32,000 nucleotides of DNA from an uncultured Alphaproteobacteria bacterium (GTDB lineage Bacteria; Pseudomonadota; Alphaproteobacteria; Rs-D84; CACZYB01). The notes under the pieces were generated by a model that searched no databases, was not told the DNA's origin, and saw only the letters and a program-made list of their open reading frames with translations. Shown piece after piece: positions 5,601 through 31,202 of this stretch. The stretch spans positions 90,001 to 122,000 of the forward strand of contig CAKQHZ010000001.1 in assembly GCA_934246625.1 (NCBI GenBank). Direction: 5' to 3'. The translations under genes were made by a program, and so were the position numbers. Numbering within the stretch: the first letter of the stretch is position 1; every line of letters starts with the position of its first letter.

Positions 5601-6087
5601 GTAATTTATCAGCATCAATATCATCAATCACAGAAAAGTGTGGTGAAACCTTTGCTTCAATCGGGAAACGTTTCAACACAGATTGGCAAAATGCATGGAT
5701 TGTATAAATTTTAAGTGGTATTGGATTATCAATAAGTTTTGAAAAAAGTTTTCGTGCCTTTGTTTTAAGTGATAGCATTTCACTTTCATCAAAATCACAC
5801 TTTTCAATATCAACGAAAAAAAGTTTTTTTATTTCAATTTCTAAATCAAAATCATTTATAACTGCCCAACTTCTTGCACGTTTAAAAATTCTGTCTTGCA
5901 TTTCAATAGCACCAGCATTTGTATAAGTAAGACAAAGTATTTTTGTTGGGTCAACATCAGATAAAAATAAACGCAATAATCGAGAAACAAGAACCGTTGT
6001 TTTTCCGGTTCCAGCACTTGCCGATACCCAAACGGAATAGTTTGGATTTGCGGCTTCCTTTTGATTTTGAAAAGAATTATCTTCCAT
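2689..6087 (-). CDS. addA: AddA-type helicase-nuclease (UvrD/Rep superfamily 1 helicase with a C-terminal PD-(D/E)XK/RecB-like nuclease)
   Basis: 1132 aa. N-terminal Walker A SASAGTGKTTVL. Helicase motifs LIDEAQDTSPLQW, VGDKKQSIFGFQGA, TVHGSKGLEAPIVF and LLYVAMTRARDKLY. C-terminal nuclease motif IDKLV...IIDYKTD. Confidence 0.8.
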   Translation of the reverse strand: MEDNSFQNQKEAANPNYSVWVSASAGTGKTTVLVSRLLRLFLSDVDPTKILCLTYTNAGAIEMQDRIFKRARSWAVINDFDLEIEIKKLFFVDIEKCDFDESEMLSLKTKARKLFSKLIDNPIPLKIYTIHAFCQSVLKRFPIEAKVSPHFSVIDDIDADKLLDEAYKDFLCKIRYSKDENAVHISNQFDYLTSILTQYTFEKLISEIIKKREDFNTLLEIYKTAEEVKTQLQKKIFSNFDNVDVNADENEYIKNIISKIPFATLKEMVSILDGYNTKTKEYENILKFLSFDNIDLQVENFDMYKYFFLTKTNEKRKSILNKSISLKYPQLSENLVREADRIEYENNFVYCLKIYRATEAILDIAFEFINIYKSLKNKNNVMDFSDLIETVNHLFHEPNISEWILYKMDGGISHILIDEAQDTSPLQWNIVDVLTEEFFTSGKTEKNIKSIFSVGDKKQSIFGFQGADVSLFEKYKKHFKNRVENGNFVFKELPLNRSFRSCKNILNLVDKILNESDIVKGVLLQNEVIEHIPHRKDYDGYVELLPLINKNENDETNYLKPPFEVVHISNSVADLSDIVAKKIKHILQNDFLPFDDNNKTEKSLRRKVEPRDIMILVQKRENAKYLVQKFNEYNIPVSGQDKLILSNNIVVEDLISLVKFTLSPYDDLSLAEVLKSPIFNLNDDDLFKLCYERNGTLYEQLNKYDEYKDIYAELSEYISLSRIKTPFLFFDYILKVKDKRKNFISRFGDIINDILNEFMQKCLYYDKEKMGKSLFDFYSWFSSSEISVKRDMEQVNNVVRIMTVHGSKGLEAPIVFLFDANIRNSSLTDKILWTDNFPIFKDTNLKSSCLKKIYLDTKDSSEEEFYRLLYVAMTRARDKLYITGWGSSEGSNEKTWYSCIKQIMQSYALEKEDEVLTKVGSDIIDNKVLYIGSEKIDADVVVENIIETKVAKHIPLYMFEKSANTIPLPENEVVTSPLNYDIDEENKSLQKGKIIHKLLESFHNTSLENFKLSALKLLEKENIDNKEKIISQIENILLNHDFDFIFGDNTFAEVEVANNNKTYRIDKLVITNNEISIIDYKTDISVPNIDNVPQKYKKQLSVYKKIIETIYPNCNVKTFILWFENAELMEII

Positions 6088-6093
6088 AAAAAC

Positions 6094-6309
6094 TTATAAA
6101 CCTCTTCCTGTATCCTTGGAAAATTTAGGTTGTGTATCTTCATACAATTTCTTTTTTAAAATATTGCATGCTTGTTCGAAATTTTTTGCCTCACCAACTG
6201 CAACCAATTCATCAGCACGTTCTGAAATAAGATCCAATGCTTGTTTATCAAATGTGAATATTTTATTAAGTATTTTTTCTTTTCTTTTTTCCTTTAGGTT
6301 TTCAAACAT
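6094..6309 (-). CDS. Hypothetical 71-aa charged protein, apparently translationally coupled to addA
   Basis: AGGGGA lies 6 nt upstream of the ATG on the minus strand. Its stop is 6 nt before the addA ATG. I recognise no family. Confidence 0.45.
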   Translation of the reverse strand: MFENLKEKRKEKILNKIFTFDKQALDLISERADELVAVGEAKNFEQACNILKKKLYEDTQPKFSKDTGRGL

Positions 6310-6408
6310 AAAAAATCCCCTAATACTTTGTTATTTTTGAAAATAATTATAGCATAAAGTTTTTAAATATGCTATAGTATTTTTATTCAAATAAGAGGGG
6401 GAAAATCA

Positions 6409-10171: not shown

Positions 10172-11365
10172 TTACAAATAATCACTTTTCGAACTTATCA
10201 ACATATCGCTGTGAATATAACAACATTCGATTAGTCCAAATCCAAAAAACAATGTTAACATTGCTGTGCCACCATAAGACAAAAGTGGTGATGGAACACC
10301 AACAACTGGTAATAATCCCATAACCATTGCTGTGTTTATAAAGAAATAAACAAAAAAGTTTGCACCCAATCCCAAGGCAAGCAATTTTCCAAATGTATTT
10401 CGGCTTACAAATGCAACCCTATAACATTGCCAAAGTATTGCAATAATAAGTGCAAATAACATAAGACAACCAAACATACCAAATTCTTCTGCAAACATTG
10501 TAAAAATAAAATCCGTTTGTTTTTCAGGCAAAAAGTTCAAATGACTTTGGGTGCCCTGTAAATATCCCTTTCCCCAAAAACCACCTGAACCAAGTGAAAT
10601 TTTGGATTGTGTAATGTGATAACCTGAACCCATAATATCCTTTTCTGGATTCATAAAAATAACAATTCTTTGTTTTTGGTAATCGTGAAGTCCATATTGC
10701 CATATCACAGGAAATGCCACCAATAAAAGCATAAATATTGCACCAAATTTCCACCATTGAACTCCTGCAATAAAAAAGACTATACCTGAAACAAAAACAA
10801 GCATCATTGCAGTTCCCAAATCAGGTTGTAATAATACCAAAAGAACTGGAAGTCCAACTAAACCCAATGGAAATACAAGGTAATAGTTGCTTCGTATTTC
10901 ATTTATACTTAGGGCAGCGAAATATTTTGATAATGCAAGCACCAACGCAATTTTCATAAATTCAGATGGTTGAAAACGTATAAAACCTAAATTAAGCCAA
11001 CGTTGTGCACCCATTCCAACATGACCAACTATATTCACCAAAATCAATGAAACAACGCCTATACCATATATCCAATAAGCATATTTCACCCAAATTTTTA
11101 AATCAAAAACAGAAATAACAAATAAAATAAAAAAGCCAATTATAATTTTTGGAAGTTGTGAAATTGCCCATGGAGTCCATGAACCATAACTTAAAAGACA
11201 GGTTAATTTGTCGGTGCATTCTGCCTTTCCTGCACTATATAAAATAGCAAGCCCAACAGAAGACAAAAGTCCAATTAAAAAAACAAGTTTCCAATTAAGG
11301 CATAGGAATTTTGAAAGTATACTCATACGCCCACTTTTTTTCATACTTAAAGAATAATTTAACAT
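10172..11365 (-). CDS. rodA: Peptidoglycan glycosyltransferase RodA (SEDS family)
   Basis: Polytopic membrane protein. Motifs QPSEFMKIALVL, LQPDLGTA and GSGGFWGKGYLQGTQSHLNFLPEKQTDFIFTMFAEEFG. Lies downstream of mrdA. The true start may be an internal Met. Confidence 0.88.
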   Translation of the reverse strand: MLNYSLSMKKSGRMSILSKFLCLNWKLVFLIGLLSSVGLAILYSAGKAECTDKLTCLLSYGSWTPWAISQLPKIIIGFFILFVISVFDLKIWVKYAYWIYGIGVVSLILVNIVGHVGMGAQRWLNLGFIRFQPSEFMKIALVLALSKYFAALSINEIRSNYYLVFPLGLVGLPVLLVLLQPDLGTAMMLVFVSGIVFFIAGVQWWKFGAIFMLLLVAFPVIWQYGLHDYQKQRIVIFMNPEKDIMGSGYHITQSKISLGSGGFWGKGYLQGTQSHLNFLPEKQTDFIFTMFAEEFGMFGCLMLFALIIAILWQCYRVAFVSRNTFGKLLALGLGANFFVYFFINTAMVMGLLPVVGVPSPLLSYGGTAMLTLFFGFGLIECCYIHSDMLISSKSDYL

Positions 11366-11377
11366 TTTATTTTTCCT

Positions 11378-13204
11378 TTATGAATATAGTTCCAATGTTT
11401 TTATCATTAAATCCCTTGCAATAGGACCAGCGGCACTTGAACCTGACATACCATGTTCTATGACAACAGAAACGGCAAAGCGTGGATTTTTAAATGGGGC
11501 ATATCCAACAAATAACGCATGGTTTCTGTATTTCCATGGTAAATTTTCTTGCTTTATAACACCATGAAGTCGTTCTTCACGAGTAATTCGTTTAACCTGT
11601 GTTGTTCCAGTTTTTCCAGCCATTTGTTTACCATTATAAATAAATGCTGCTGTTTTTCCTGTTCCATTTGGTTTATTGACAACAGAAAACATTCCTCGTT
11701 TTACAAGATTCAAATATCGTGTATCAACATTGATTTGTGGGAAAAATAAATTCTCGTATTCTCCCCTTAAAATTCTTGGTTTCACAGCAAAGCCACCATT
11801 TGCAATACGAGAAGTCATAACGGCAAGTTGTAATGGAGTTACCAAAGTATAGCCTTGACCAATAGAGGCTGTGATAGTATCACCTGTATACCAATTATCA
11901 CTTTTGTAATTGCGTTTCCAACTTACACTTGGAACTTGCCCCTTCTTTTCATTTGCAAGTTCAATACCTGTATAATCACCAAGTCCAAATTTATATGCCA
12001 TTTCTTGGATAGAATCCATATTGATTTTCGTTGCAATATTATAGTAGAAAATATCACAAGAATGTTGCAAAGATTGTTCCAAATCCAACAAACCATGACC
12101 TGAGGTTTTCCAACAATGGTATCGACCATCACCATAATCCATATGACCTGTGCAATTTATTTTTGTGTTAGGAGTAATTTTACCATCTTGAAGTGCTGCC
12201 AATGCAGTAATCATTTTGAATGTGGACCCTGGGGCATATAGTCCTTCGATAGCCTTATTCATAAATGGATGACGAGGATTGGTAATAAGTTTTTTAAAGT
12301 CATCTGCGGAGGCATCTTCTGATAAAAAAATGTTCGGATTATATGTTGGCACAGATATCATCATAAGGATATCTCCGTTGTAAATATCCATAATGATTGC
12401 GCTGGCACTTTCTTCCTTTATTCGTTCAAGGGCATATTCTTGTAATCGTTTATCAATAGTTAAAACTATATTTTGCCCTGGTGTAGCACGTTTTTTCTTA
12501 TCATCAAGAGTTTCAATTACACGGCCTGTGGCATTAACGACTTGCATTGTTTCACCAGCAGAACCGCGAAGTTCCTTATCCATCAACTTTTCAACGCCAG
12601 CCTTTCCCGTTTTAAAATCGGGAAGTTGTAATACAGGGTCAGAATCCTCTTTTAACTCTTGTTCACTTACATCAGAAACATAACCAATTACGTGTGCAGC
12701 AACTTCGTTAAATGGATAAAAACGACGTTTTCCTTCTTCGACATATACACCTGTGAAATCAAGGTTTTTTACTTGCAATTTTGCCATTTCGTCCCAACCA
12801 AGATTATTTTTGATAAAGACTGGGAAAAAAGCCTTTTTCTTTTTTATGTTGTTTAGGACCTTTTCTTTTTCCTTTTCAGATAATGGAATAAGCTCTGAAA
12901 TGCGATTTAAAATTTCTTCCACTGAAAAGCCACGTGCGGTTACTTCCTCTGGTATCATTTGAACGCCATAGCTGTTCTTATTGATTGCCATTTCAACACC
13001 GAATCGGTCCTTTATCAATCCACGAGCAGGAGCAATAAGTTTTATTCGAACACTGTTTTTTTCAGATAGCTTTTTATATTTTGCACCATCGATAATTTGA
13101 AGTTGGTAAAGTCGTCCAGCAAGAATTGAAAATAAAAACAATTCTCCACCTGCGACAAGAAGTGCTCTTCGATTAAAAATTTTGATTAACTCTGCATCTC
13201 TCAT
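11378..13204 (-). CDS. mrdA: Penicillin-binding protein 2 (elongasome transpeptidase)
   Basis: N-terminal anchor. Active-site SxxK APGSTFKMITA, SxD HSCDIFYY, and KTG motif AGKTGTTQV. Sits between mreD and rodA. Confidence 0.9.
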   Translation of the reverse strand: MRDAELIKIFNRRALLVAGGELFLFSILAGRLYQLQIIDGAKYKKLSEKNSVRIKLIAPARGLIKDRFGVEMAINKNSYGVQMIPEEVTARGFSVEEILNRISELIPLSEKEKEKVLNNIKKKKAFFPVFIKNNLGWDEMAKLQVKNLDFTGVYVEEGKRRFYPFNEVAAHVIGYVSDVSEQELKEDSDPVLQLPDFKTGKAGVEKLMDKELRGSAGETMQVVNATGRVIETLDDKKKRATPGQNIVLTIDKRLQEYALERIKEESASAIIMDIYNGDILMMISVPTYNPNIFLSEDASADDFKKLITNPRHPFMNKAIEGLYAPGSTFKMITALAALQDGKITPNTKINCTGHMDYGDGRYHCWKTSGHGLLDLEQSLQHSCDIFYYNIATKINMDSIQEMAYKFGLGDYTGIELANEKKGQVPSVSWKRNYKSDNWYTGDTITASIGQGYTLVTPLQLAVMTSRIANGGFAVKPRILRGEYENLFFPQINVDTRYLNLVKRGMFSVVNKPNGTGKTAAFIYNGKQMAGKTGTTQVKRITREERLHGVIKQENLPWKYRNHALFVGYAPFKNPRFAVSVVIEHGMSGSSAAGPIARDLMIKTLELYS

Positions 13205-14623: not shown

Positions 14624-14691
14624 TAGTTATTTATAGCACCCATAAAAAAAATAGTCATCATTTTTTTTCAATTTTTTAATAAAAATTATAC

Positions 14692-14720
14692 TTTACAAGT
14701 GGCAAAAAAATTTTTATTAT
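14692..14720 (+). promoter_or_regulatory. Candidate sigma70-type promoter for the Bax-like gene
   Basis: TTTACA (14692-14697), 17-nt spacer, TATTAT (14715-14720). The AT-rich background makes chance matches likely. Confidence 0.35.
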
Positions 14721-14737
14721 TCCTTTAAGCTAAAAAA

Positions 14738-15736
14738 ATGATAAAACAAATACTTACTAATTTTAAAAATTTACCTTTGGCAATCAAAAACAGATTATAT
14801 ATTCTTTTTGATAATATTTTTTATAAACTTAAGGTCCTTTTTAATTTTTATTACAGAAAATTTATAAAACGTGAGTATATTCCTGTATATATAGCAATTT
14901 TAATATTCGTAATTATGTCTGTGATTTCTGGAATTATTGTTGTATATGATACAAATTCTCACATAACTTCTTATCGAAAAATGGAACAACTTTTTTTGGA
15001 AAATGATTATGATTTGGAAAAAATCAGAAACAAGGAAAAAGATGTGCCTCGAATTTTTATAAAAACTCTTCCCTCTGATTTCAATATGATAGAATCACCA
15101 AAGGAAAAGAAAGATTTGTTTATTAAGTTCCTTTTACCTCTTATTTTGAAAAAAAATGAAGAAATTATGAAGGACCGTTTGAAACTTCAGGCAATAGAGG
15201 TAAAAATCGAATCAAAAATTCCTCTTCTTGAGGAGGAAGAAAAGTTCCTTAATTTAATAAAGGATACATATAAAACTGAAACTGGCGATATAAAGGATAT
15301 TTTAGTTAAACTTGATGAAGTATCTGTATCAATGGCTTTGGGGCAAGCAATCCAAGAAACTGGCTGGGGAGAATCTCGCTTCCTTATTCAAGGAAATTCT
15401 ATATTCGCAGAATGGACTTGGGGTGGCGATGGTATGCTTCCACGTGCAAGAAAAGATGGACTTATCCACCGAATTAAAACATTTCCAACACTTTATGATT
15501 CCGTTGACAGCTATGCAAACAACCTTAATAGAACACGATATTATGCAGGGTTCAGAAGAATGCGTGCAACCTTAAGGGCTCAAGACAAACCTTTGTATGG
15601 AAGATGGCTTATGAGTTCTATGGTAAGATATTCAACACAAAAAGATGTTTATATTTTAGAAGTTAAAAAAATTATTCGTGATAACAATTTAGATGATTTT
15701 AACACAGTCAAACTTGAACCTGAAGTTAACACTTAA
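14738..15736 (+). CDS. Bax/FlgJ-related N-acetylglucosaminidase-domain protein, membrane anchored
   Basis: N-terminal TM (IPVYIAILIFVIMSVISGIIVVY). Glucosaminidase-like region MALGQAIQETGWGESRFLIQGNSIFAEWTWG. C-terminal YANNLNRTRYYAGFR, as in the E. coli Bax family. Confidence 0.7.
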   Translation: MIKQILTNFKNLPLAIKNRLYILFDNIFYKLKVLFNFYYRKFIKREYIPVYIAILIFVIMSVISGIIVVYDTNSHITSYRKMEQLFLENDYDLEKIRNKEKDVPRIFIKTLPSDFNMIESPKEKKDLFIKFLLPLILKKNEEIMKDRLKLQAIEVKIESKIPLLEEEEKFLNLIKDTYKTETGDIKDILVKLDEVSVSMALGQAIQETGWGESRFLIQGNSIFAEWTWGGDGMLPRARKDGLIHRIKTFPTLYDSVDSYANNLNRTRYYAGFRRMRATLRAQDKPLYGRWLMSSMVRYSTQKDVYILEVKKIIRDNNLDDFNTVKLEPEVNT

Positions 15737-17568: not shown

Positions 17569-17985
17569 ATGAAAAACTTATCTAAAATACTTTGTATTTG
17601 TGCGGGGGCTATCTCGGCAAATCCTATTAACCTTCAGGCTAAAACTTTGCTTGAAACCTTGACTCAATACTGTGTTCCGACGGTTGGCAACTGCGACAAA
17701 AAGGCTACCTACAATACCTCTGGCAACTATTGCGATTGTGCCAACATCAACAAATTCTATAACTCTTCGAATCGTTCTTGCGAGAACTGTATCCTCGGCT
17801 CTTTCGCAACCTCAGACTATAAAACTTGTGAGCCTATTCATTGCCCTGACGGCTATGTTGCGACTTTGATTTCCAAAGGGGCGTGTCCAGATGGCTATAC
17901 TTTGCAACAAATCAATGTGGCTTCGGGTTGTGGCGAGGGTTATGCGTTGAAGAAGTATAATCCGGCGACGAAGAGTTTTAATTAA
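17569..17985 (+). CDS. Secreted cysteine-rich protein with CxxGY repeats (hypothetical)
   Basis: RBS GGGGAAG lies upstream. Sec-type signal peptide (KILCICAGAISA). 10 Cys in the mature part. Repeated CPDGYV / CPDGYT / CGEGYA units. GC-richer codons than neighbouring genes. Confidence 0.7.
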   Translation: MKNLSKILCICAGAISANPINLQAKTLLETLTQYCVPTVGNCDKKATYNTSGNYCDCANINKFYNSSNRSCENCILGSFATSDYKTCEPIHCPDGYVATLISKGACPDGYTLQQINVASGCGEGYALKKYNPATKSFN

Positions 17986-18092: not shown

Positions 18093-18767
18093 ATGAAAAC
18101 CATGAAGAAAAAGAAATTAGCGGTGATAGGGATAGCGGGATTAGCGGGAATGCTTTACTCTGCGACACCTGCCTCCGCTCAAACATTTTATCAATGTATG
18201 CCTTTGAAGTGTAAAGCAGGAGAGTATGTAAGTGAAGGAGGAGAGTGTAAACGTTGCACGGGAGGTTATCGTTGCCCAGGAGATAATAAAAGGTATGCAT
18301 GCACAGGAGAATGGGAATATGCGTTTCCAGGAAGTTCAAGATGTTCAACCTTTGGCCCAAGTGATATTGAAAATATGAAATTGTTGGTTGGAGCTGGAGG
18401 TTGTTCACCGGGTAATTTCGCATCAATATATGTAAGGTTAAAGAATCTAAAAGTAGCAAATAATAGATATTACTATTTCGCTGTTAATATACCTCACTAT
18501 AAAACCCCTGCAATCCCTGAATATGTTATATATACACACTGTAACGCTGTACAAAATGATTATGAAGACCAAATATTATGTAAAGATATACAAAAAGTTA
18601 TAGTAAAAAGTAGAGGTGTTGGCGGTGGTGGCTGTTTCTCTCTTACACAAGGTAGTAAAGAGTTTCCTAATGTAGTGTTTGTTTCTGATAGCGGAAAATG
18701 TATGTCTTATTGGAAAGATGAACATGGAAGACAAAGGTTTGATACGTTGGACAAATGTAAATATTAA
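18093..18767 (+). CDS. Secreted cysteine-rich protein: N-terminal CxxGY-type repeats plus a C-terminal domain of unknown type (hypothetical)
   Basis: RBS GAAGGAG lies 7 nt upstream. Signal peptide ending ASA-QT. 13 Cys in the mature part. Units CKAGEY, CTGGYRC and CTGEWEY. Confidence 0.7.
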   Translation: MKTMKKKKLAVIGIAGLAGMLYSATPASAQTFYQCMPLKCKAGEYVSEGGECKRCTGGYRCPGDNKRYACTGEWEYAFPGSSRCSTFGPSDIENMKLLVGAGGCSPGNFASIYVRLKNLKVANNRYYYFAVNIPHYKTPAIPEYVIYTHCNAVQNDYEDQILCKDIQKVIVKSRGVGGGGCFSLTQGSKEFPNVVFVSDSGKCMSYWKDEHGRQRFDTLDKCKY

Positions 18768-19640: not shown

Positions 19641-20216
19641 TTAGCTGTGCTTTGAATTTTTAAAGCTATACACACAACCACAATAATTTTGTTCATAGAT
19701 TTGTTGTTCCTTTATTATATTATGTGTGCGTTCTTGGATACCACATTTTCGCCAATTTATATCAAGGTATGGAACATTTGTAAAATGTTCAACAAGTCGC
19801 CCTACCTTATCAACTTGGGATAAATCTTTCCAGCGGGAAAAACCAAGTGTTGATGTGAAATAATCAAATTTATGTTGGCGGGCATACAATGCTGTTTTTG
19901 TTAGACGAAGTGAAAAGCAGGCTTCGCATCTTGCCCCACGTTCAGGACAATCCCCTAACCCTTTTGTTATTTTAAAATAATCATTTGGGGTGTAGTCAGT
20001 ATCAATAAAAGGAACATTATATAAATTCGCAATGCGGATAACTTCACCCTTTCGTTTGATATATTCTTCCTGTGGATAAATATTTGGATTATAAAAAAAT
20101 AAAGTTGCATCGATTTTGTTTTCTGCCAAAAACTCAACTACTCCACAACAACAAGGAGCACAACACACAAGAACAAGCATTTTACCCTTTATATCAAGAA
20201 TATCACTACTTAACAT
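19641..20216 (-). CDS. queH: Epoxyqueuosine reductase QueH (DUF208)
   Basis: N-terminal LVCCAPCC cluster, central CPERGARCEACFSLRL, and C-terminal NYCGCVYS, all typical of QueH. Confidence 0.8.
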   Translation of the reverse strand: MLSSDILDIKGKMLVLVCCAPCCCGVVEFLAENKIDATLFFYNPNIYPQEEYIKRKGEVIRIANLYNVPFIDTDYTPNDYFKITKGLGDCPERGARCEACFSLRLTKTALYARQHKFDYFTSTLGFSRWKDLSQVDKVGRLVEHFTNVPYLDINWRKCGIQERTHNIIKEQQIYEQNYCGCVYSFKNSKHS

Positions 20217-21458: not shown

Positions 21459-22190
21459 ATGAAAATATCTAATTTATCAATAGCAGTTATTGCATTGTCT
21501 GCTTTGTTGTTTTCTGGCAAAACTTATGCAGATTGGGGTGTGGAAGCATACGAGGAAGAAATCGTTGATGACAGCCCTGTTTGGCCTATGCCTTATACTG
21601 ACTCATATACAAATATAGATGAGTTGGCTGAAAATCCTGACTATACAACACAAAATGCAGAAAATGCAAACAAAGTATCTTCAAAAACTCCTGAAACTGG
21701 TTGGACAGGTGGCCCAAGTTATACTCCACCTGCTGGAAATCCTCCTGTGGTTGAAAATATTATTCCGCCAGCAGATTCAAATATGCCTTTGGCAAATAAA
21801 GATTTAATCGTTGATGATGGTGTAAGAGTGCTTTCTGCTTCTATGCCTCCTGGATACCCTCTTGTTGAATATGTTGAAACAAAGGAAGTTGTGATGGAAG
21901 ACGAAGTTAATAAAATTCTTCAAGATTCTATTCGTGATTGGGTTGCAAAGGAAGGTCAAACTCTTCGCGAAGTATTACAACAATGGGCTGATATTGAAGG
22001 TTGGGAACTTGTTTGGAATACAAAACGTGAGTATCCTTTAAAGGCATCTGCAATATTCAGAGGAAGATTTAAAGATGTTTCTTCTGCTATTATTAGAACA
22101 TTTTCAAGAGCTACACCTCAACCTTTGGCTAAATATTACTTAGGAAATAGAGTGTTAGTTGTAAAAACTTTGGAGGAAAATGATGGTTAG
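21459..22190 (+). CDS. pilL: PilL-like periplasmic protein with a TcpQ-type C-terminal domain (type IVb pilus biogenesis)
   Basis: Signal peptide without a lipobox. C-terminal RDWVAKEGQTLREVLQQWADIEGWELVWNTKREYPLKASAIFRGRFKDVSSAIIRTF...LGNRVLVV matches my memory of the TcpQ/PilL domain. It is the first gene of the cluster and overlaps pilN by 11 nt. I prefer the ATG at 21459, with GGAGAG upstream, to the TTG at 21447. Confidence 0.6.
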   Translation: MKISNLSIAVIALSALLFSGKTYADWGVEAYEEEIVDDSPVWPMPYTDSYTNIDELAENPDYTTQNAENANKVSSKTPETGWTGGPSYTPPAGNPPVVENIIPPADSNMPLANKDLIVDDGVRVLSASMPPGYPLVEYVETKEVVMEDEVNKILQDSIRDWVAKEGQTLREVLQQWADIEGWELVWNTKREYPLKASAIFRGRFKDVSSAIIRTFSRATPQPLAKYYLGNRVLVVKTLEENDG

Positions 22191-23700
22191 TAAAAAAGTT
22201 CTTCTCACATCAGTAATGCTTTCTTATGCATTAAGTGGTTGTGTGTATAATCATGAAATGGCAAGTTCTGTGAAAAATAAGGTATCTGTGGATTTTGATG
22301 AAACACAAGATGCACTTGACAGAGCAAAGGTTCCTGGTCGTCCAATATCAAAGGATATTATTTCTGTAAGTGATGATATTTGGCTTGGTGAAACAAGTAT
22401 TGTGGCAGAACATAACGACCCATTGCCAAACAGATTTGAATCTGATGAAGGTATTACTTTGATGACAGATTCAGCAGTTACCTTTGATGAAATAACAAAT
22501 CAAATTTATTATTTGACTGGAATTTCTGTTCAAATTGAAGATAGTATCAAAAAAGAAGATTTAAAGGATTTAAGTATTTCTTATACTGGTCCATTATCTG
22601 GTCTTTTGAATATGCTTGCATTAAAGGCAAACATCAATTGGAGTTATGAAGGTGGAAAGATTATTTTCTATAAATATAAGACAAGAACATTTATTCTTCA
22701 TACACTTGCAACAGAATCAACTTATTCAGCAAACATTTCTTCTGGAAGTGATGGTTCAGCAACTTTGCAAACATCATCTAATTTAAAAGAATGGACTGAA
22801 ATTGGTGATGTTTTAAAAACTATTGTAAAAGATGGTGAAGTTCAACTTTCTCCTTCTACAAATTCTATTACCGTTACTGCTACACCAAAAACATTACAAA
22901 AGGTTGAAGCATACATAAAAGAACAAAACAGAAGATTTGCAAAGCAAGTTGCTGTTACTGTTAGAGTTATGCAAGTATCTCTTTCAAAAAGCAACAATTT
23001 TGGTCTTAACCTTACTGCTTTGTTTAACAATACTTATAATTTAGTAACAAGCACATCAAATGCAAGCTCTGATGGATTGTCATTCGCAATTTTGAAAGAT
23101 TCAAATGATAAAATGGCTGGTTCATCTGCTGCTATAAAGGCATTGTCAGCACAAGGAAAAACTTCTTTGTTGACATCTGCTGTTATTACTGCAAGAAATA
23201 ATCGAGTTGTGCCAATTAACAATATTCAAACTTTCAAGTATGTAAGTTCTATTTCTACTTTGACTGAAAATACAAATTCAACAACTGAAGTAACTCCACA
23301 AGAAGAATCTGTTGGTTTCAGTATGCAAATTATGCCTAACATTCTTGAAAATGGTAAATTGATGTTGTTGTTCAATATGTCATTAAAGGAACTTATCACT
23401 ATTGACACAATGCAAGTTGGTTCAACTGTGGTTCAACTTCCAAAGATTGAACAAAGAAACTTTATGCAAGAACTTGTTATGGAATCAGGTCAAACTGCGG
23501 TTCTTACTGGATTTGAAAAAATCAGAAATGAAAATGGCAGTGAAGGTCTTGGAAAGAGTGAATTTACATACCTTGGTGGTTCACAAAGCACAGAAACAAC
23601 TCGCGATGTATTGGTTGTTATGTTGACACCTCAAGTTATTACTTCACCACTTGAAATTGAAGATAACTCTAATAATGATTGGGGTATGCCATCTTACTAA
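22180..23700 (+). CDS. pilN: Type IVb pilus secretin lipoprotein (R64 PilN family)
   Basis: Lipobox LSGC at residues 19-22. Secretin-like C-terminus: NNRVVPINNIQTFKYV, GFSMQIMPNILENGKLMLLFN and TGFEKIRNENGSEGLGKSEFTYLGG...DVLVVMLTPQVI. Confidence 0.75.
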   Translation: MMVSKKVLLTSVMLSYALSGCVYNHEMASSVKNKVSVDFDETQDALDRAKVPGRPISKDIISVSDDIWLGETSIVAEHNDPLPNRFESDEGITLMTDSAVTFDEITNQIYYLTGISVQIEDSIKKEDLKDLSISYTGPLSGLLNMLALKANINWSYEGGKIIFYKYKTRTFILHTLATESTYSANISSGSDGSATLQTSSNLKEWTEIGDVLKTIVKDGEVQLSPSTNSITVTATPKTLQKVEAYIKEQNRRFAKQVAVTVRVMQVSLSKSNNFGLNLTALFNNTYNLVTSTSNASSDGLSFAILKDSNDKMAGSSAAIKALSAQGKTSLLTSAVITARNNRVVPINNIQTFKYVSSISTLTENTNSTTEVTPQEESVGFSMQIMPNILENGKLMLLFNMSLKELITIDTMQVGSTVVQLPKIEQRNFMQELVMESGQTAVLTGFEKIRNENGSEGLGKSEFTYLGGSQSTETTRDVLVVMLTPQVITSPLEIEDNSNNDWGMPSY

Positions 23701-23723
23701 CATTTATTTAAGAGGGGAAAAAG

Positions 23724-25175
23724 TTGGTAGCAAGCAAAGATATTAAAACTGTTGATATAGCAGGAAAAACCTATGCAGTAGGTCTTTTCTGGCAACCTGT
23801 TCAAAATGAAAAAGAATATTTGAAAGAGGTAAAAGCTGCTGTTCAAACAGTTGTGGTTGGTGCAAACCTTTATTGCTTGAAAAAGGGAACTGCCTCTCAA
23901 TATGGTTTAGGTTTTACAAGCTCTGGTCAAAAAAAGGGTATGCCTGCGGGTGCATCAGGAATTGCGAACGCACTTCGTGATAAATCATCTGCGGTTTGTG
24001 TTTTTAAGGTCAATGAAGGTTGGTGGTTCATCACCATAAGAAATAACCTTATTCTTTCCGAAGAAGATACTATCTATACCGATGAAAATGAAGCAAGAGA
24101 AGCATTTAATTCTATGTTATCAATCCCAGATTGGGGATATAAGATTGCTCCTGCAGAATGGGGAATCGAAGATACAAAAGAAATAAGTGCCGTTGAATTA
24201 TTATCAAAGGGTCAATCTGTTGAATTAAAATCTATTGAAACAAACAATGCAAAAAATATTATTTTAATTCTTTTGATGGTCGGAGCTGGTTGGTATTATT
24301 ACCATTCTGAACAAGTTAAAAAAGCTGAACAAGAAAGAATTGCAAGAGAAAGAAGAATTGCTGCGGCAAAGAAAAAAATGCTACAGGAGGTTGCTCCTCC
24401 ACCTCCTCCACCTGCTCCTTTTGAAAGTTTGACTGATATAAAGGATATGGCAAAGAAATGCACTATTTTAATTGTAAATTCAACTGCAACTGTGCCAGGT
24501 TGGGAATTGGATAAATCAATTTGTATAGAAAAGGCTATGACTTCAAATTGGAAGCGTGGTTATGGAACTGCGGGTTGGATTTTCGAAGCTCAACGATATG
24601 GAAATCTTCCAAAGGAAATGGAATTGTCTGCGGATAATAGCTCTTATAATTCTGTAAGTGGAACTATCAATATTCCATTTATAAAGCATACCAACCAAGC
24701 ACCTGTTATGGAAAAAAATGAAATTCAAAAAAAGTTAAGTGATATTTTTCAATCTTTGAAACTTTCTACATTCAAACTTCATGATGGAAAGACAACTATA
24801 AAGGATAAAAATAATCCTAACTATATAATGGATTATCCATACACAAATTTTTCATTTACTGATGCGGCTTATCGTCTTCCTTTGGATTGGGTGAAATTGC
24901 TTAGCGAAATAAATTCTATTGAATTTACTTCAATAACGTGGGATAATAAGAACAGACGTTGGTCTTATGAGGGAAGAATTTATGAAAATACTCCTGCTTT
25001 GATAAAACAAGCAGAACAAAAGAAATTAGAGGAAGAAAAAAAGTTGAAAGAAGAAGAGGCAAAGAAAAAGCAACAAGAAGCTCAAAATTCTGCAACTTTA
25101 GAAAATTCTGATAAAACAAATACAGAAGGAAAAAAAGAGGGGAATACCGATGGCAATTCTAAACAATCTAAATAA
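23724..25175 (+). CDS. pilO: PilO-like bitopic pilus biogenesis protein (R64 PilO, pilin accessory protein family) with a Pro run and an E/K-rich tail
   Basis: TTG start 6 nt after GAGGGG. N-terminal GKTYAVGLFWQP region. Single TM NIILILLMVGAGWYYY. Position between the secretin gene and the pilP-like gene. The family call is from memory of PilO N-termini. Confidence 0.55.
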   Translation: MVASKDIKTVDIAGKTYAVGLFWQPVQNEKEYLKEVKAAVQTVVVGANLYCLKKGTASQYGLGFTSSGQKKGMPAGASGIANALRDKSSAVCVFKVNEGWWFITIRNNLILSEEDTIYTDENEAREAFNSMLSIPDWGYKIAPAEWGIEDTKEISAVELLSKGQSVELKSIETNNAKNIILILLMVGAGWYYYHSEQVKKAEQERIARERRIAAAKKKMLQEVAPPPPPPAPFESLTDIKDMAKKCTILIVNSTATVPGWELDKSICIEKAMTSNWKRGYGTAGWIFEAQRYGNLPKEMELSADNSSYNSVSGTINIPFIKHTNQAPVMEKNEIQKKLSDIFQSLKLSTFKLHDGKTTIKDKNNPNYIMDYPYTNFSFTDAAYRLPLDWVKLLSEINSIEFTSITWDNKNRRWSYEGRIYENTPALIKQAEQKKLEEEKKLKEEEAKKKQQEAQNSATLENSDKTNTEGKKEGNTDGNSKQSK

Positions 25176-26028
25176 AAAAAATTATATTTTATTTTTATTT
25201 ATGTTAATTTTATCATTTACCTTTAATGTTGCAAATGTAAAGGCTCAAGCAAATGATAATCAAGACGAATATTATGAAGATGACGAAGAATATGATGAGT
25301 CAGAAGAAGATGTTGCCAATGATGAAGATTTAGGTAATGAATACGATGAAGGTTCTGATTTATATGAAAATACAGTGGATATTGATGACCCAAATGGTAT
25401 GTATAAACTTGACGATTTAACTGCTTCTACATTCAAACAAATTACATCTATGGAAAGACAAAATGCCATTATGAAACTTAAAATTGAACAAGGCAAATTG
25501 AAACTTGATTTGGAAAAACAAGAAGCTGAAAAGAAAAAACTTGCTCTTAACCTTGCTGATGAAGAAAAGGCTCGTGAATTAAAACGTGAAGAACAAGAAA
25601 GAAAGATTGAAGAAACTCGTAAAAAGGCTCGTGAATTAGAAGAAAAAGAGCAAGAAGAACGTAAAAAGAAACAACAAGAAGAAGAATTAAACAGAAAAAT
25701 TATGGATAAAATCAATTCAGCAGATTTAACAAATCCTGATGATGTGCAAGCATTAAGTCAACTTTTAAGTTTGGCTGGTGGTAATACTGCAAGTCTTCAA
25801 AATAAAAATGTTAGAAAAGCTGATAATATAGAAGATAAATATGTGATTAAATCCATTGCTGGCGCTGGTGGTAATTTGGTTGCCAATATTGAAAATATTG
25901 AAAAAAAATCTACTTTTAAAGTAAGAAATGGTAGTGTGCTTGATGGCTGGCTTGTTGAAAGTGTAAAAAGCTCAAGTATCTTACTTAAAAAAGGTGGTAT
26001 TGCTAAAGTAATGTATCTTAATCAATAG
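25150..26028 (+). CDS. pilP: PilP-like pilus biogenesis protein with acidic and coiled-coil inserts
   Basis: Signal peptide ending KAQA-ND. C-terminal beta-domain-like YVIKSIAGAGGNLVANIENIEKKSTFKVRNGSVLDGWLVESVKSSSILLKKGG. GAGGGG RBS. Overlaps pilO by 26 nt. Confidence 0.55.
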   Translation: MAILNNLNKKNYILFLFMLILSFTFNVANVKAQANDNQDEYYEDDEEYDESEEDVANDEDLGNEYDEGSDLYENTVDIDDPNGMYKLDDLTASTFKQITSMERQNAIMKLKIEQGKLKLDLEKQEAEKKKLALNLADEEKARELKREEQERKIEETRKKARELEEKEQEERKKKQQEEELNRKIMDKINSADLTNPDDVQALSQLLSLAGGNTASLQNKNVRKADNIEDKYVIKSIAGAGGNLVANIENIEKKSTFKVRNGSVLDGWLVESVKSSSILLKKGGIAKVMYLNQ

Positions 26029-26036
26029 GATTTTAA

Positions 26037-27668
26037 ATGGAGGGGAATAACAACATTGATGTGGAATTAGCATCTCAACCTGCTAATCCGTTCGAGGGTT
26101 TATCTTTAAAAGATGCAACTGCAAAACTTTTTGCCAATGGGAATACATTGGAATCTGGACCAAAGGGAAAATTTCCTGTGGGTGCGGATACACAAAGTTT
26201 GCTTGCTTTGTTTGCTGATGGAACCTTTCTTGTTTCTGGAACACATAAATTTGATGGTAGAGTTTTAAGTTTCCAATCTTTGGTAAGAAAAAAGGGTGGA
26301 AAAATTGCCAGACCTATTTATGTTTCTATGAGTTTATTGAACTCTATTTATTCATCTAATGAAAAGGCGACAAGTGTAAAATCCTCCTCTGATGACAATT
26401 CATCAAACCAAATGCAAAAGGATTTTGTTGATATTGTTTATAGAGCCGCAGATTTAAAAGTTTCTGATATTCACGTTATCGTTTCTGACCATACAACTGT
26501 GTTGTTCAGAGTTTCAGGAAGTATGCAAACTATACTTGAATATGATAAAAACTGGGGTGAGGCATTTGTGCGTTCTGTGTTCGCGTCTGCGGATATTTCT
26601 GATTCAAACTATGCACAAAACGAATTCCAAGCTGGTCAAAAACTGGGTTCAACACCTCTTCGTGGTGAAAGAGATTTGTATTTGCCAGAAAATATACTTT
26701 CTATTCGTTTGCAATTTAATCCTATTGCGTTTGGTTCACGATATTTGGTTATGCGTTTGTTGTATGCAAATTCTTCTGCCTCAAATGACGATAATTTAAA
26801 AGAATTAGGATTTTCAGATTACGAAGATTCAAAACTTTATAAAATGAGAAGTTTTCCAACTGGGCTTTGTATTATTGCTGGTCCAACAGGTTCTGGTAAG
26901 TCAACAACTCTTCAACGTAATATGATTAAGATGCTTAAGGAAAAAAATTATGAACTTAACCTTATTACGGTGGAAGATCCTCCTGAATACCCTATTCCAG
27001 GTGCAAGACAATTACCTGTGACAAATGCGACAACAGAAGAAGAAAAGGAAGAGGCTTTCAACCTTGCTTTGGCGGCGGCACTTCGTTCTGACCCTGATGC
27101 AATGATGGTCGGTGAAATTCGAACACTTTCTTCTGCGGAATTGACATTCAAGGCCGCATTATCAGGACACAATGTGTGGTCAACACTTCACGCAAATTCT
27201 GCCCCTGCTATTGTGAACAGACTTTTGGATATGGGAATTGATGCGTTTAAATTAAAAGATGCAGAATTAATTCGTGGTCTTCTTTCACAAAGACTTTTTA
27301 AAAAACTATGCCCAAAATGTAGAGAAGCAATTAAAAATCACCCTGATCACCCATCTTATGAAAGATTGGAAAAGGCATTGGGCAAATATGGCATTGAACA
27401 AACTTATATAAAGGGAAAAGGTTGTCCATTTTGTGGTGGAAAGGGAATTGTCGGCCGTATTGTTGCATCTGAAATTATTATTCCTGATTCAACTTTCCTT
27501 GAAAAACTAACAAGTGGTAAAAAAAGTGATGCTGTTCATTATTGGACTAATGAACTTAGTGGTAGAACATTAAAAGAAGATGCGATTGAAAAAATGTTAA
27601 AGGGTATCATTTCCATTGATGAAGTAGAAAGATGGTGTGGTATGATTGATACAGACGCCGTTTATTAA
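26037..27668 (+). CDS. pilQ: Type IVb pilus assembly ATPase (GspE/PilB superfamily, R64 PilQ-like)
   Basis: Walker A GPTGSGKST, ITVEDPPEY, Walker B region DPDAMMVGEIR, His box GHNVWSTLHAN, and tetracysteine CPKC...CPFCGGKG. Confidence 0.85.
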   Translation: MEGNNNIDVELASQPANPFEGLSLKDATAKLFANGNTLESGPKGKFPVGADTQSLLALFADGTFLVSGTHKFDGRVLSFQSLVRKKGGKIARPIYVSMSLLNSIYSSNEKATSVKSSSDDNSSNQMQKDFVDIVYRAADLKVSDIHVIVSDHTTVLFRVSGSMQTILEYDKNWGEAFVRSVFASADISDSNYAQNEFQAGQKLGSTPLRGERDLYLPENILSIRLQFNPIAFGSRYLVMRLLYANSSASNDDNLKELGFSDYEDSKLYKMRSFPTGLCIIAGPTGSGKSTTLQRNMIKMLKEKNYELNLITVEDPPEYPIPGARQLPVTNATTEEEKEEAFNLALAAALRSDPDAMMVGEIRTLSSAELTFKAALSGHNVWSTLHANSAPAIVNRLLDMGIDAFKLKDAELIRGLLSQRLFKKLCPKCREAIKNHPDHPSYERLEKALGKYGIEQTYIKGKGCPFCGGKGIVGRIVASEIIIPDSTFLEKLTSGKKSDAVHYWTNELSGRTLKEDAIEKMLKGIISIDEVERWCGMIDTDAVY

Positions 27669-27679
27669 AGGAGAATATT

Positions 27680-28768
27680 ATGGCTATTCAAAAAGTAATT
27701 CCTTCAAATGCAACGATATTAAAATTATCTCAACTTATGGTTTTGTTGAATAATGAAAAAAGGCTTAAAATTTATTATAAATTGGCAGCCCTTCTTCGCA
27801 ATAAATTTACTTTGATGGATGCCTTAGACAGAATTTGGATGATTGAATCAAAGGACGGACAAAGTCCAGAAGAACCTATGGCTATTGCGGTGGCTTGGTG
27901 GTTAAAGGAATTGGAAAAAGGTTTGTCTTTTTCAACTGCTATAAATGGTTGGGCTCCTGTGCGTGAAAAATTGATGCTTTCTGTTGGTGATGTGTCAAAA
28001 CTTGAAAAGGCTTTACTTAATGTTATAAAGGTTTCAGAAGGTTCAAATAAAATTATTAAACCATTGATAAATGCGGTTACTTATCCGTTATTGATGATTG
28101 GACTTTCACTTCTTATTATTGTGGGTGTTGGTGTGTATATGGTTCCTCCACTTATGGAATTTGCAAAAAATGCACAATGGACAGGAAGTGCAAAATCCTT
28201 GGTTGCACTATCTAATTTTGTGAAAGTTTATTGGTGGACCTTCCCGGCTGTGCTATTTGGGATTATTTTAGTTATATATGTATCATTTGCAAACTTTACT
28301 GGACCTTTGCGTGTATCATTTGATAAATGTCCACCTTGGTCATTATACAGAATGTTCACTGGTGTGAGCTGGCTTATGAGTTTGGCTGCATTGGTAGAAT
28401 CTGGAACTCCTATTTCAAAAGCTATGCAATCATTACGTCAAAATGCTTCACCTTATTTAAGGGAACGTATTGATAAGGCATTGATGTTTATGAAAAATGG
28501 TGATAACTTAGGAACTTCACTTAAAAAATCAGGAACTCATTTCCCAGAAGACGAACTTATCGGCGATTTGGAAATTTATTCTGAACTTGATGGATTTGAA
28601 GACTCTTTAAATGCTGTTGCTTCAGATTATCTTAATACCAGTATTGAAAATATTCAAAAGCAAGCGTCTATGTTAAATTCGTTTGCATTGCTACTTGTTT
28701 CAGGTATTATTGCATGGGTTCTTCTTGGTGTGTTTGATATGCAAAACCAAGTTCAAAATGCGATGTAA
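27680..28768 (+). CDS. pilR: Type IVb pilus inner-membrane platform protein (GspF/PilC family, R64 PilR-like)
   Basis: 362 aa with three hydrophobic segments in a GspF-like arrangement. Follows the ATPase gene directly, with an AGGAG RBS. Confidence 0.75.
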   Translation: MAIQKVIPSNATILKLSQLMVLLNNEKRLKIYYKLAALLRNKFTLMDALDRIWMIESKDGQSPEEPMAIAVAWWLKELEKGLSFSTAINGWAPVREKLMLSVGDVSKLEKALLNVIKVSEGSNKIIKPLINAVTYPLLMIGLSLLIIVGVGVYMVPPLMEFAKNAQWTGSAKSLVALSNFVKVYWWTFPAVLFGIILVIYVSFANFTGPLRVSFDKCPPWSLYRMFTGVSWLMSLAALVESGTPISKAMQSLRQNASPYLRERIDKALMFMKNGDNLGTSLKKSGTHFPEDELIGDLEIYSELDGFEDSLNAVASDYLNTSIENIQKQASMLNSFALLLVSGIIAWVLLGVFDMQNQVQNAM

Positions 28769-28849
28769 AAACAATATAAAAGAAAATGCTTGAAAAAGTT
28801 ATAAATAATTGCTTTAATATGCCTAACAACTGTTAAATGAAAGAGAAAA

Positions 28850-29134
28850 ATGACAAGAAGTGATATTATAAAAAAAATATATCAACACAAATCAAACCTT
28901 TTGATTCGTGATATTGAAAAAATTGTTGATATATTAACAAATACTATATCTTCATCTTTGGCTGAAGGTCATAGAATTGAACTTCGTGGGTTTGGAGTAT
29001 TTGCTCCTAAAAAGCTCGCATCAAAAGTTGCATCAAACCCAAAGGGTGGTGCAAAAATAAATCTTCCTGAAAGAGTTTCTGTTAAATTTAAGGCAGGAAA
29101 ACTTCTTTCAAGCAAAATTAACGATAAAATTTAA
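28850..29134 (+). CDS. ihfB: HU/IHF-family DNA-binding protein, most like integration host factor beta
   Basis: 94 aa. IELRGFGVF...NPKGGAKINLPERVSVKFKAGKLL. The basic residues before NP are weaker than the canonical GRNP. Confidence 0.7.
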   Translation: MTRSDIIKKIYQHKSNLLIRDIEKIVDILTNTISSSLAEGHRIELRGFGVFAPKKLASKVASNPKGGAKINLPERVSVKFKAGKLLSSKINDKI

Positions 29135-29148
29135 GCATTATACAAATT

Positions 29149-29373
29149 ATGATTAAAACTACATTAAATTGGATAGCTTTTTTTATCTTATTTTTTATAA
29201 TAGTATTATTTTCTATTGAAAATGATAATTTGATGATATTAAGTTTATTTCCGTTCAAAGTTGGTATTGAAATGCCCGTGTATCTTTATACTATTACACT
29301 TGCTTTCATTTCATTTTTTACTGGAATAATCTTTTCAAAATTATTTTACAAATCTAAAAAAACTTATAAATAA
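29149..29373 (+). CDS. LapA-domain (DUF1049-like) small inner-membrane protein
   Basis: 74 aa with two TM segments. It lies immediately after ihfB, as in many alphaproteobacteria. Confidence 0.5.
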   Translation: MIKTTLNWIAFFILFFIIVLFSIENDNLMILSLFPFKVGIEMPVYLYTITLAFISFFTGIIFSKLFYKSKKTYK

Positions 29374-29384
29374 AGGAGTTTAAA

Positions 29385-30242
29385 GTGGTAAATTGGATTA
29401 AAGATATTATAAGACCTAAAATTAAAACTATGTTTTCAAAAATAAAAGATGTGCCTGAAAATATGTGGGTGCCATGTCCTAAATGTTCAACTCTTATGTA
29501 TAGAAAGGATTTACATAATCACCTTAACGTTTGCCCAAAATGTGATTATCATTTATTCCTTCAAGTAAATGACAGATTTGACAGTCTTTTTGATGATGCA
29601 AAGTATCAAATAATTGATGCTCCAAAGGTAAAAGAAGATCCTATTAACTTTAAAGATTTAAAGAAATATAAGGATAGATTGGAAACCTATAGAGCAAAAA
29701 CAAAAGCTCAAGATGCGATTTCTGTTGCATTTGGTAAAATTGGTAAAATTGATACTGTTGTATGTGCTTTTAATTTTGAATTTATGGGCGGAAGTATGGG
29801 AACTTTCGTTGGTGAATATATTTTAAAGGGTGCAGAATATGCAGTAAAAAAGAATGCCGCATTTATTGTTATCCCTGCTTCTGGTGGTGCAAGAATGCAA
29901 GAAAGTATGTTATCATTGATGCAAATGGCAAGAACTACACTTGCAGTTAACAAAGTCCGTGATGCTGGACTTCCTTATATCGTTGTATTTGCAAACCCAA
30001 CAATGGGTGGTGTATCTGCTTCTTTTGCAATGCTTGGCGATATTCATATTGCTGAAAAAGGTGCATTGATTGGTTTTGCTGGAAAGCGTGTTATCGAACA
30101 AACAATTAAACAAAAATTACCTCCTGAATTCCAAACTGCTGAATATTTAAAGGATCAAGGTATGGTTGATATTGTTGTTCACAGAAAAGATTTGAAAAAT
30201 ACTTTGGTAAATATCTTAAAAATGCTTATGCACAATAAATAA
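29385..30242 (+). CDS. accD: Acetyl-CoA carboxylase carboxyltransferase beta subunit
   Basis: GTG start 7 nt after AAGGAG. Zn ribbon CPKCSTLMYRKDL...CPKCDYH. Motifs FMGGSMG and SGGARMQES. Confidence 0.92.
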   Translation: MVNWIKDIIRPKIKTMFSKIKDVPENMWVPCPKCSTLMYRKDLHNHLNVCPKCDYHLFLQVNDRFDSLFDDAKYQIIDAPKVKEDPINFKDLKKYKDRLETYRAKTKAQDAISVAFGKIGKIDTVVCAFNFEFMGGSMGTFVGEYILKGAEYAVKKNAAFIVIPASGGARMQESMLSLMQMARTTLAVNKVRDAGLPYIVVFANPTMGGVSASFAMLGDIHIAEKGALIGFAGKRVIEQTIKQKLPPEFQTAEYLKDQGMVDIVVHRKDLKNTLVNILKMLMHNK

Positions 30243-30263
30243 TTTGAAAATAAGGAATTTAAA

Positions 30264-31202
30264 ATGATTTATTTAGATTTTGAAAAAAATATTAAAGAAT
30301 TAGATGTCAAAATTCAAGAACTTGAAGAAGCAAAGGAAACTGCTTCTCGTAAATCAAAACTTGAAAAATTGATTGCTAAACGTGAAGAAGAATTAAAGAA
30401 AATTTATTCAAATCTTTCTTCTTGGGACAGAGTGCAAGTTGCAAGACATGCAAATCGTCCACATGCTATTGACTACATCAATACTATGATTACAGATTTT
30501 GTTGAACTTTGTGGTGATAGAGCATTCGCAAATGATGATGCAATTATCGGTGGTATGGGATACCTTGACGATATGCCTGTTATGGTTATTGCCCAAGAAA
30601 AAGGTAGTGATACAGAATCTCGTATTAAACACAATTTCGGTATGCCAAAACCAGAAGGTTATAGAAAAGCAATAAGACTTATGGACCTTGCAAACAGATT
30701 TGGTCTTCCTGTAATTTTCTTGGTTGATACTGCTGGTGCTTTCCCAGGGGCCGATGCCGAAGCAAGAGGTCAAGCCGAAGCTATTGCTCGTTCAATACAA
30801 AAATGTTTGGATATGGAAGTTCCAACCGTTTGTGTTGTAATTGGGGAAGGTGGTTCTGGTGGTGCAATTGCTATTGCCGTTGCAAATACTATCTTTATGC
30901 TTGAAAATTCAGTTTATTCTGTGATTTCACCAGAAGGTTGTGCTTCTATTCTTTGGAGAAGTCAAGAACACAAACAAGAAGCAACAAAGGCATTGAAAAT
31001 GACTGCTGATGACCTTCTTGAACTTGGCATTATTGATAATATTATCAAGGAACCTGTTGGTGGTGCACATAGAAACAAAGAAGAAGCTATTGCAAATGTT
31101 AAATCTGCTTTGAAAGATGAACTTAAAAAACTTTCTAAATTAAGCAAAAAACAAGTAAAAGAAAAAAGACTTCAAAAATTTGAAAATATGACAAGAATAT
31201 AA
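30264..31202 (+). CDS. accA: Acetyl-CoA carboxylase carboxyltransferase alpha subunit
   Basis: Motifs RHANRPHAIDY, NFGMPKPEGYRKA, DTAGAFPGADAEARGQAEAIA and IGEGGSGGAIAI. Confidence 0.92.
   Translation: MIYLDFEKNIKELDVKIQELEEAKETASRKSKLEKLIAKREEELKKIYSNLSSWDRVQVARHANRPHAIDYINTMITDFVELCGDRAFANDDAIIGGMGYLDDMPVMVIAQEKGSDTESRIKHNFGMPKPEGYRKAIRLMDLANRFGLPVIFLVDTAGAFPGADAEARGQAEAIARSIQKCLDMEVPTVCVVIGEGGSGGAIAIAVANTIFMLENSVYSVISPEGCASILWRSQEHKQEATKALKMTADDLLELGIIDNIIKEPVGGAHRNKEEAIANVKSALKDELKKLSKLSKKQVKEKRLQKFENMTRI

Follow-up and report, generated by a model that had tools for sequence, protein, structure and literature searches.

Results

A type IVb pilus core that ends at pilR

We analysed a 32,000-nucleotide window (positions 90,001 to 122,000 of contig CAKQHZ010000001.1) from an uncultured alphaproteobacterium, a low-GC chromosomal stretch (about 31% GC) in which six co-directional genes, pilL-N-O-P-Q-R (21459-28768), encode the core assembly machinery of a type IVb pilus (Table 1). 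A preliminary description, made from the sequence alone, had noticed that this operon stops after pilR without a pilin or prepilin peptidase gene, and had left three options: the missing genes are unlinked, the machine works with a non-canonical substrate, or the locus is decaying. The reading that we favour, with moderate confidence, is that of a functional, chromosomally fixed core whose operon ends at pilR and whose pilin and peptidase are encoded elsewhere.

The start of pilL was placed at ATG 21459, as in the gene calls on all conspecific contigs (243 aa); the mechanical open reading frame (ORF) begins at TTG 21447. The PilN match to TIGR02520 spans most of the model, but its 239 bits fall short of the curated 287.65; against the Pfam Secretin family the protein scores 47 bits, above the cutoff. 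The pilP-like gene occupies the same position in all related clusters and has a size that fits PilP. The Walker A motif of PilQ reads GPTGSGKST, and PilQ also has four cysteines arranged as CPKC...CPFC. Components of type II secretion gave only distant matches (GspD/E/F), far below the cutoffs, with no pseudopilins in the window. No Flp-type G-x4-E ORF of at least 40 aa, as expected for a Tad/Flp pilus, was found there either, and the family matches indicate PilN and PilO.

Table 1. Features of the pil cluster and its 3' flank (positions are those of the window)
Feature	Position	Strand	Assignment and evidence
pilL	21459-22190	+	periplasmic TcpQ-domain protein; PF10671 2.4e-18, 66.4 bits (cutoff 27)
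pilN	22183-23700	+	outer-membrane secretin, type IVb PilN family; lipobox LSGC; TIGR02520 9.7e-71
pilO	23724-25175	+	type IVb PilO accessory protein; PAP_PilO PF06864 2.9e-14, 53.2 bits (cutoff 26.7)
pilP-like	25150-26028	+	by position and a weak match to TIGR03021 pilP_fam, E 0.0023, 18.9 bits (cutoff 34.65)
pilQ	26037-27668	+	assembly ATPase, GspE/PilB type; T2SSE 2.7e-65, 220.9 bits
pilR	27680-28768	+	inner-membrane platform protein, 362 aa; T2SSF 3.7e-21, 75.8 bits, two repeats; last gene of the pil operon
probable ihfB promoter	28790-28818	+	-35 TTGAAA 28790-28795; 17-nt gap; TG-extended -10 TGcTTTAAT 28810-28818 (TTTAAT 28813-28818)
ihfB	28850-29134	+	integration host factor beta subunit; TIGR00988 7.9e-24; Pfam Bac_DNA_binding; housekeeping, outside the pilus system
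74-aa membrane protein	29149-29373	+	LapA-like by position; no Pfam match; weak LapA_dom match at the ortholog position in L011
accD and accA	29385-31202	+	acetyl-CoA carboxylase carboxyltransferase subunits; TIGR00515 1.3e-108; ACCA PF03255 2.8e-140; conserved housekeeping flank

The pil operon ends at pilR, which is separated from ihfB by an 81-bp spacer (pilR end 28768, ihfB start 28850); recomputation reproduced the coordinates and gene calls that had been given for both genes and the gap. A site scan found no terminator-like site in the spacer, and its RNA fold is weaker than that of shuffled sequences (-6.4 vs -9.1 +/- 2.5 kcal/mol), in agreement with the earlier claim that a hairpin terminator is lacking. 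The promoter-like TTGAAA-17-TTTAAT had also been located correctly. Taken as a single sequence the match is non-significant: it fails the -10 rule of the scan, and the AT-rich region as a whole has no excess of promoter-like hexamers (64 observed vs 50.5 +/- 8.4 expected in 11.5 kb). When the spacer was aligned across 10 species (PilR 80-93% identical), CTTGAAAAA and TTGC..TAAT, the TG-extended -10, proved invariant or nearly so and fixed in spacing, with the bases between and around them varying. It is this phylogenetic footprint across 10 species, not the match in one sequence, that leads us to regard the conserved element as probably ihfB's own promoter. Read-through from pilR into ihfB may occur.

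No pilin, peptidase or second ATPase near the cluster

The search for missing components covered about 50 kb around the cluster in the window species and about 21 kb per relative. A six-frame scan of the window for Gly/Ala-x4-Glu with a hydrophobic stretch gave no pilin, and one spurious antisense match inside pilO. Since R64-type pilins may lack Glu5 (the PilS of a Thalassospira plasmid reads ...RRAG before WGIGSF), the scan was widened to any ORF with an N-terminal transmembrane segment. Across the window this relaxed scan returned RodA, MreC, a DsbA-like protein, PilP, the LapA-like ORF and short or antisense ORFs that matched no family, and again no pilin. Hidden Markov models (HMMs) of PilS and PilS-like proteins, built from relatives, gave no match below E = 4, either in the window or at 17 loci of its clade. 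Searching the window by tblastn with plasmid PilS, A24 peptidase, transglycosylase and second ATPase produced only the expected cross-matches of the second ATPase to pilQ; neither the A24 HMM nor tblastn gave an A24 match in the window or its flanks; and neither motif nor transmembrane scans revealed a prepilin-type ORF of any size in the window that could serve as a PilV adhesin or minor pilin. The two observations with which the preliminary description began, an operon without pilin or peptidase and a window without any type IV prepilin N-terminus, thus withstood all of these scans.

That description had also considered a pilin and a peptidase immediately beyond the window. The flanks could be read on conspecific human gut metagenome contigs up to 715 kb long, and over about 8 kb upstream and about 10 kb downstream they hold only housekeeping genes and genes of unknown function, none of them pilin-like, with no A24 peptidase or second ATPase. 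A pilin that is close by and was nonetheless missed, being very short, very divergent or just past the examined stretch, is therefore highly improbable: a motif scan alone could indeed have overlooked one without Glu5, but the relaxed transmembrane scan, the PilS HMMs and tblastn were negative in the window, as were the flanks and 17 related loci.

The core is intact and under purifying selection

The six pil ORFs were described earlier as intact, and they are so wherever we looked. All are equal in length across 6 conspecific contigs, and they are intact and near-constant in length in 12 related species; frameshifted pil genes, which had been named as a possible sign of plain erosion, were found in no strain or species examined. 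The exact PilR protein occurs in 164 blocks of the collection. Pairwise Nei-Gojobori comparison with the closest species gave dN/dS of 0.06-0.09 for pilN, 0.05-0.09 for pilQ and 0.06-0.09 for pilR; the adjacent housekeeping genes, our internal control, gave 0.07-0.11 (accD) and 0.08-0.13 (accA). Values for pilL, pilO and pilP were higher (0.10-0.25), yet these genes are clearly constrained. Because dS (0.8-1.3) is close to saturation, the absolute values are rough. Judged by these substitution patterns, the pil core is under strong purifying selection.

These data bear directly on the third option, decay, with the locus as what is left of a thin-pilus operon of a mobile element after loss of its 3' half. 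The absence of the 3' genes pilS, pilT, pilU and pilV from the locus, in a lineage that probably has small genomes, would fit such a history. We exclude it, and leave it a probability close to nil, because 6 strains and 12 species all have intact ORFs and dN/dS of pilN, pilQ and pilR stands at the level of accD and accA. Moreover, family searches among the window genes found no mobile-element genes, the cluster sits amid housekeeping genes, and the junction with ihfB is kept down to 54-55% PilR identity.

The chromosomal site of the cluster is the same across related species. On its 5' side the window carries slt, rnhB, a UvrD-like helicase gene, glgP, mnmE, rodA, pbp2, mreD and mreC, followed toward the cluster by an amidase gene, dciA, the DsbA-like gene, genes for two Cys-rich secreted proteins, rpsD, queH and then Porin_4; on the 3' side a histidine phosphatase gene follows accA. 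The Cys-rich proteins, which have Sec signals, belong to a family scattered in the region (17569-17985 and 18093-18767 in the window; 19656-20123 and the next gene in L092), one member of which has a weak Ephrin_rec_like match. The two copies upstream of rpsD vary in length among conspecific strains, and the other genes there are equal in length. As candidate substrates of the core these proteins were rejected, since their linkage to the cluster is inconsistent across the clade.

Core-only loci in one clade, PilS homologues in its sister

A PilR-profile scan of one genome per GTDB species found relatives in 424 species, and the best 80 of the 424 are almost all metagenome-assembled genomes of uncultured gut alphaproteobacteria, with two architectures among them. 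The window's own clade (clade A; PilR at least 54% identical to the window's) has 16 species representatives. They come from the guts of humans, voles, deer, ruminants and termites, and their GC contents range from 30% to 59%. The clade A layout is (porin)-pilLNOPQR-ihfB-(lapA)-accDA, and no PilS-family gene or second ATPase was found within 10 kb of the cluster in 17 distinct loci. In one lineage (L008/L009:10001-20244) an inversion has parted pilR-PAP2-ihfB-accDA from pilL-N-O-P-Q, which now lies reversed downstream of accA; all of these genes are intact. Since both parts have survived the inversion intact, the pil genes need not be contiguous.

In one relative, L011, the pil cluster is surrounded by genes for four Cys-rich secreted paralogues, each about 160 aa long (2421-2909, 11201-11698, 14684-15157 and 18260-18760, all on the minus strand), and one of these genes lies between pilR and ihfB. 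All four proteins end in ...(I/V)DPNLIEY, and a comparable ending, ...YDPNMTNY, occurs in L034; such an ending may be a C-terminal sorting motif.

The sister clade (clade B; RF32-like, including Candidatus Scatocola faecipullorum, L038) has orthologous pilLNOPQR, with identities to the window of about 60% for PilQ, 50% for PilR and 33% for PilN. The gene directly 3' of pilR encodes a conserved product of about 180 aa, which has a membrane anchor at its N-terminus and a pair of conserved cysteines. This protein is a homologue of PilS (hhalign 99.4%, E 1.8e-21) that retains the body of a pilin, with a variable N-terminus that has neither Gly(-1) nor Glu5, so prepilin peptidase probably cannot cleave it. 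Such a homologue follows pilR directly in about 56 loci (for example L006:11127-11672, L036, L045 and L082). Among 41 clade B loci with at least 8 kb downstream of pilR, 14 also have one to three canonical PilS prepilins there (leader ...NEQS-G before RSMVEMLGVLAIIGVLSVGG; Pfam PilS 3e-17, Bundlin 3e-12), and 33 have a PilT-like T2SSE ATPase of about 320 aa, 38% identical to the second ATPase of Escherichia coli plasmid type IVb clusters. None of these genes adjoins the cluster in clade A.

Further genes were noted at several loci. At L090 (11683-14757), in clade B, pilR is followed, in place of the small PilS homologue, by a gene for a 1024-aa protein with the canonical prepilin N-terminus G before ALMVEAIALLG, a candidate giant pilin-like adhesin. 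A polytopic protein of about 590 aa is encoded between pilS copies at L069 (13898-15646) and L053 (12540-14327); the Sulfatase-family domain of the L069 copy suggests a pilin-modifying (phosphoform) transferase. The type IVb cluster of clade B also neighbours type IV secretion genes, as TrbC/VirB2-type pilin genes lie 5' of it (L058:417-758 and L053:132-563, both on the minus strand) and a VirB4-like ATPase gene lies 3' of it at one locus (L033:11929-14418).

Dispersed pilS and peptidase genes in relatives

Searches by tblastn and HMM up to 10 kb from pilR gave no A24 peptidase at any locus of the gut clades, not even at those with canonical prepilins. The peptidase of these gut relatives was found on a pilS-bearing metagenome contig (L175:6593-7130), where it adjoins yqeY-dnaG-rpoD. 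It has 106 homologues, all matching PF01478. Two further loci (L219:10001-10690 and L221:10001-10687) have an A24 gene at the same site, with rpoD-dnaG-yqeY divergent from A24-rodZ-prfA-prmC and no pil genes nearby, so that this housekeeping site is common to three lineages. L219 (33% GC) was considered as the window species and rejected, its PFK being only 41% identical to that of the window species; GC content alone does not discriminate the clade, as L162, also 33% GC, has sister-clade neighbours.

The DNA pattern named for genome scans for prepilins is GGNNNNWSNATGRTNGARATNHTNNNNGTNYTNNNNRTNRTNGG. A scan of metagenomes with a PilS N-terminus pattern hit at least 120 stretches, and among the matches listed most lie away from any pil cluster. 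Judged by these gene positions, one machine's genes are split over three or more loci in the lineages nearest the window.

Eight metagenome loci (L152, L201, L212, L108, L179, L116, L182 and L184) hold pilS copies with an invariant N-terminus, GRSM(V/I)EMLGVLAI... In frame and 5' of these N-termini are unrelated recurring peptides (for example SGLLRVARNDICSV and RKTALDAPLYAVS), with no start codon near. Such copies may be silent pilin cassettes or mark junctions of recombination that would vary the pilin.

Comparison with known pilus systems

The window has the same core set, in the same order (PilL-N-O-P-Q-R), as the R64 thin pilus of IncI1 plasmids and the pil2 system of PAPI-1-type integrative elements. 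It differs from them in lacking pilS, pilT, the pilU peptidase, pilV and the shufflon, and in its setting: the R64 and PAPI-1 clusters are on conjugative elements, whereas the window cluster lies between rpsD, queH and the porin gene on one side and ihfB and accDA on the other. Its secretin, under the TIGR02520 cutoff, is only about 30% identical to plasmid PilN, the best plasmid match being that of an alphaproteobacterial (Thalassospira) plasmid cluster with identical gene order (L094).

In most descriptions a type IVb system is a self-contained single locus, often carried by a mobile element. The complete reference clusters in our comparison were L094, L095, L216 and L217, the last of which is chromosomal (on a 1.72-Mb contig) and has the window's order of TcpQ, secretin, PilO, PilP, ATPase and platform genes. 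Beyond this core, the L217 cluster has minor pilins, two canonical pilins and a second ATPase, with an A24 peptidase (motif WGDLKL) encoded 3.4 kb downstream of that ATPase. PilR of L217 shares only 31% identity with PilR of the window. The L217 assembly ATPase (4299-7091) has 930 aa and is about 390 aa longer than the window's PilQ. The expectation, stated in the preliminary description, that pilS follows pilR directly in complete clusters was borne out in L094, L217 and L218 (pilR-pilS-ATPase) and in the sister clade.

Type IVa pili of Pseudomonas and Neisseria offer a different comparison, with pilA-BCD, pilMNOPQ and pilT/U at separate chromosomal loci. Their genes for one machine are scattered over several loci, as proposed here for the window system, while their components differ in family (a PilMNOP alignment complex and a PilQ secretin, with no TcpQ or PAP_PilO).

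Discussion

In the reading that we propose, the six genes encode a functional core of the R64/PAPI-1 (PilL-PilR) kind, made up of a TcpQ-domain protein, a lipoprotein secretin, PilO, PilP, an assembly ATPase and a platform protein, and this core has become a fixed part of the chromosome in an uncultured, low-GC alphaproteobacterium of the gut. One or more PilS-type prepilins, an A24 peptidase and probably a PilT-like ATPase would most likely lie elsewhere on the chromosome, as happens in the sister clade, and the unlinked prepilins would supply the fibre that the core polymerises through the secretin. Because the core is under selection and relatives provide a precedent of dispersal, a pilin and a peptidase unlinked from the cluster are most likely in this genome. 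Of the three options raised at the outset, unlinked genes are thus the best supported, by analogy with the sister lineages, and decay is refuted by intact ORFs and low dN/dS.

Several observations weigh against this proposal. No pilin, peptidase or second ATPase could be assigned to the window species or its clade in the searched ranges. None of the 106 A24 homologues is on a contig known to carry the pilR of the window species, and none of the PilS N-termini listed shares flanking genes, a sample or a contig name that would link it to clade A. A word-indexed search for PilT-like ATPases was filled by copies of the sister clade, and a profile search for them also gave no copy assignable to clade A, which is weak as evidence because its representatives were clustered at 50% identity; L217 and L218 were set aside in that search as other lineages, and P0245 because it is 65% identical to the L082 subgroup. 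Furthermore, the much larger clade B has a PilS homologue directly 3' of pilR and clade A never does, so clade A may have lost these genes outright.

Such a loss is the basis of the alternative in which clade A has neither the peptidase nor any canonical prepilin left, its core running on a non-canonical substrate (an uncleaved PilS-like anchor, for example) or acting as a conduit for secretion or uptake. We consider it unlikely, though it has points in its favour. No pilin-like gene lies near the cluster in the 17 distinct clade A loci despite strong selection on the core, and the PilS homologue of the sister clade, without Gly(-1) or Glu5, means that non-canonical pilin-like partners exist in the lineage. 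If the clade belongs to the order Rs-D84, as GC content, rod-shape genes and habitat may suggest, such a loss would also be in keeping with the genomes of less than 1 Mb and the rampant gene loss of that order (PMC12306168). On the other side, scattered pilS and peptidase genes are the norm in the sister clade, and the Cys-rich secreted proteins are not consistently linked to the cluster across clade A. Nor is any type IV filament machine known to work without a pilin or pseudopilin. The broadest form of this alternative, in which the whole reduced-genome gut clade keeps the core under selection at the housekeeping level, encodes neither a class III signal pilin nor a prepilin peptidase genome-wide, and uses the machine for an uncleaved PilS-like protein or for other transport, seems to us quite doubtful. 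An assembly core with unlinked pilin and peptidase genes remains our preferred reading.

Our literature search turned up no account of type IV pili for Rs-D84/Enterousia or RF32. In the window, a machine related to that of R64/PAPI-1 has become a fixed chromosomal trait, one clade keeping only the six-gene core at the locus; new in the sister clade is a PilS homologue that lacks a prepilin signal and is placed after pilR. If the core-only clade truly has no pilin, it would challenge the rule that such machines need a cleaved pilin; otherwise the case is one of ordinary split loci. In the order Rs-D84, to which these organisms may belong, genomes are small and cells may depend on partner cells (PMC12306168). 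A pilus under housekeeping-level selection would be a candidate attachment or exchange apparatus of these organisms.

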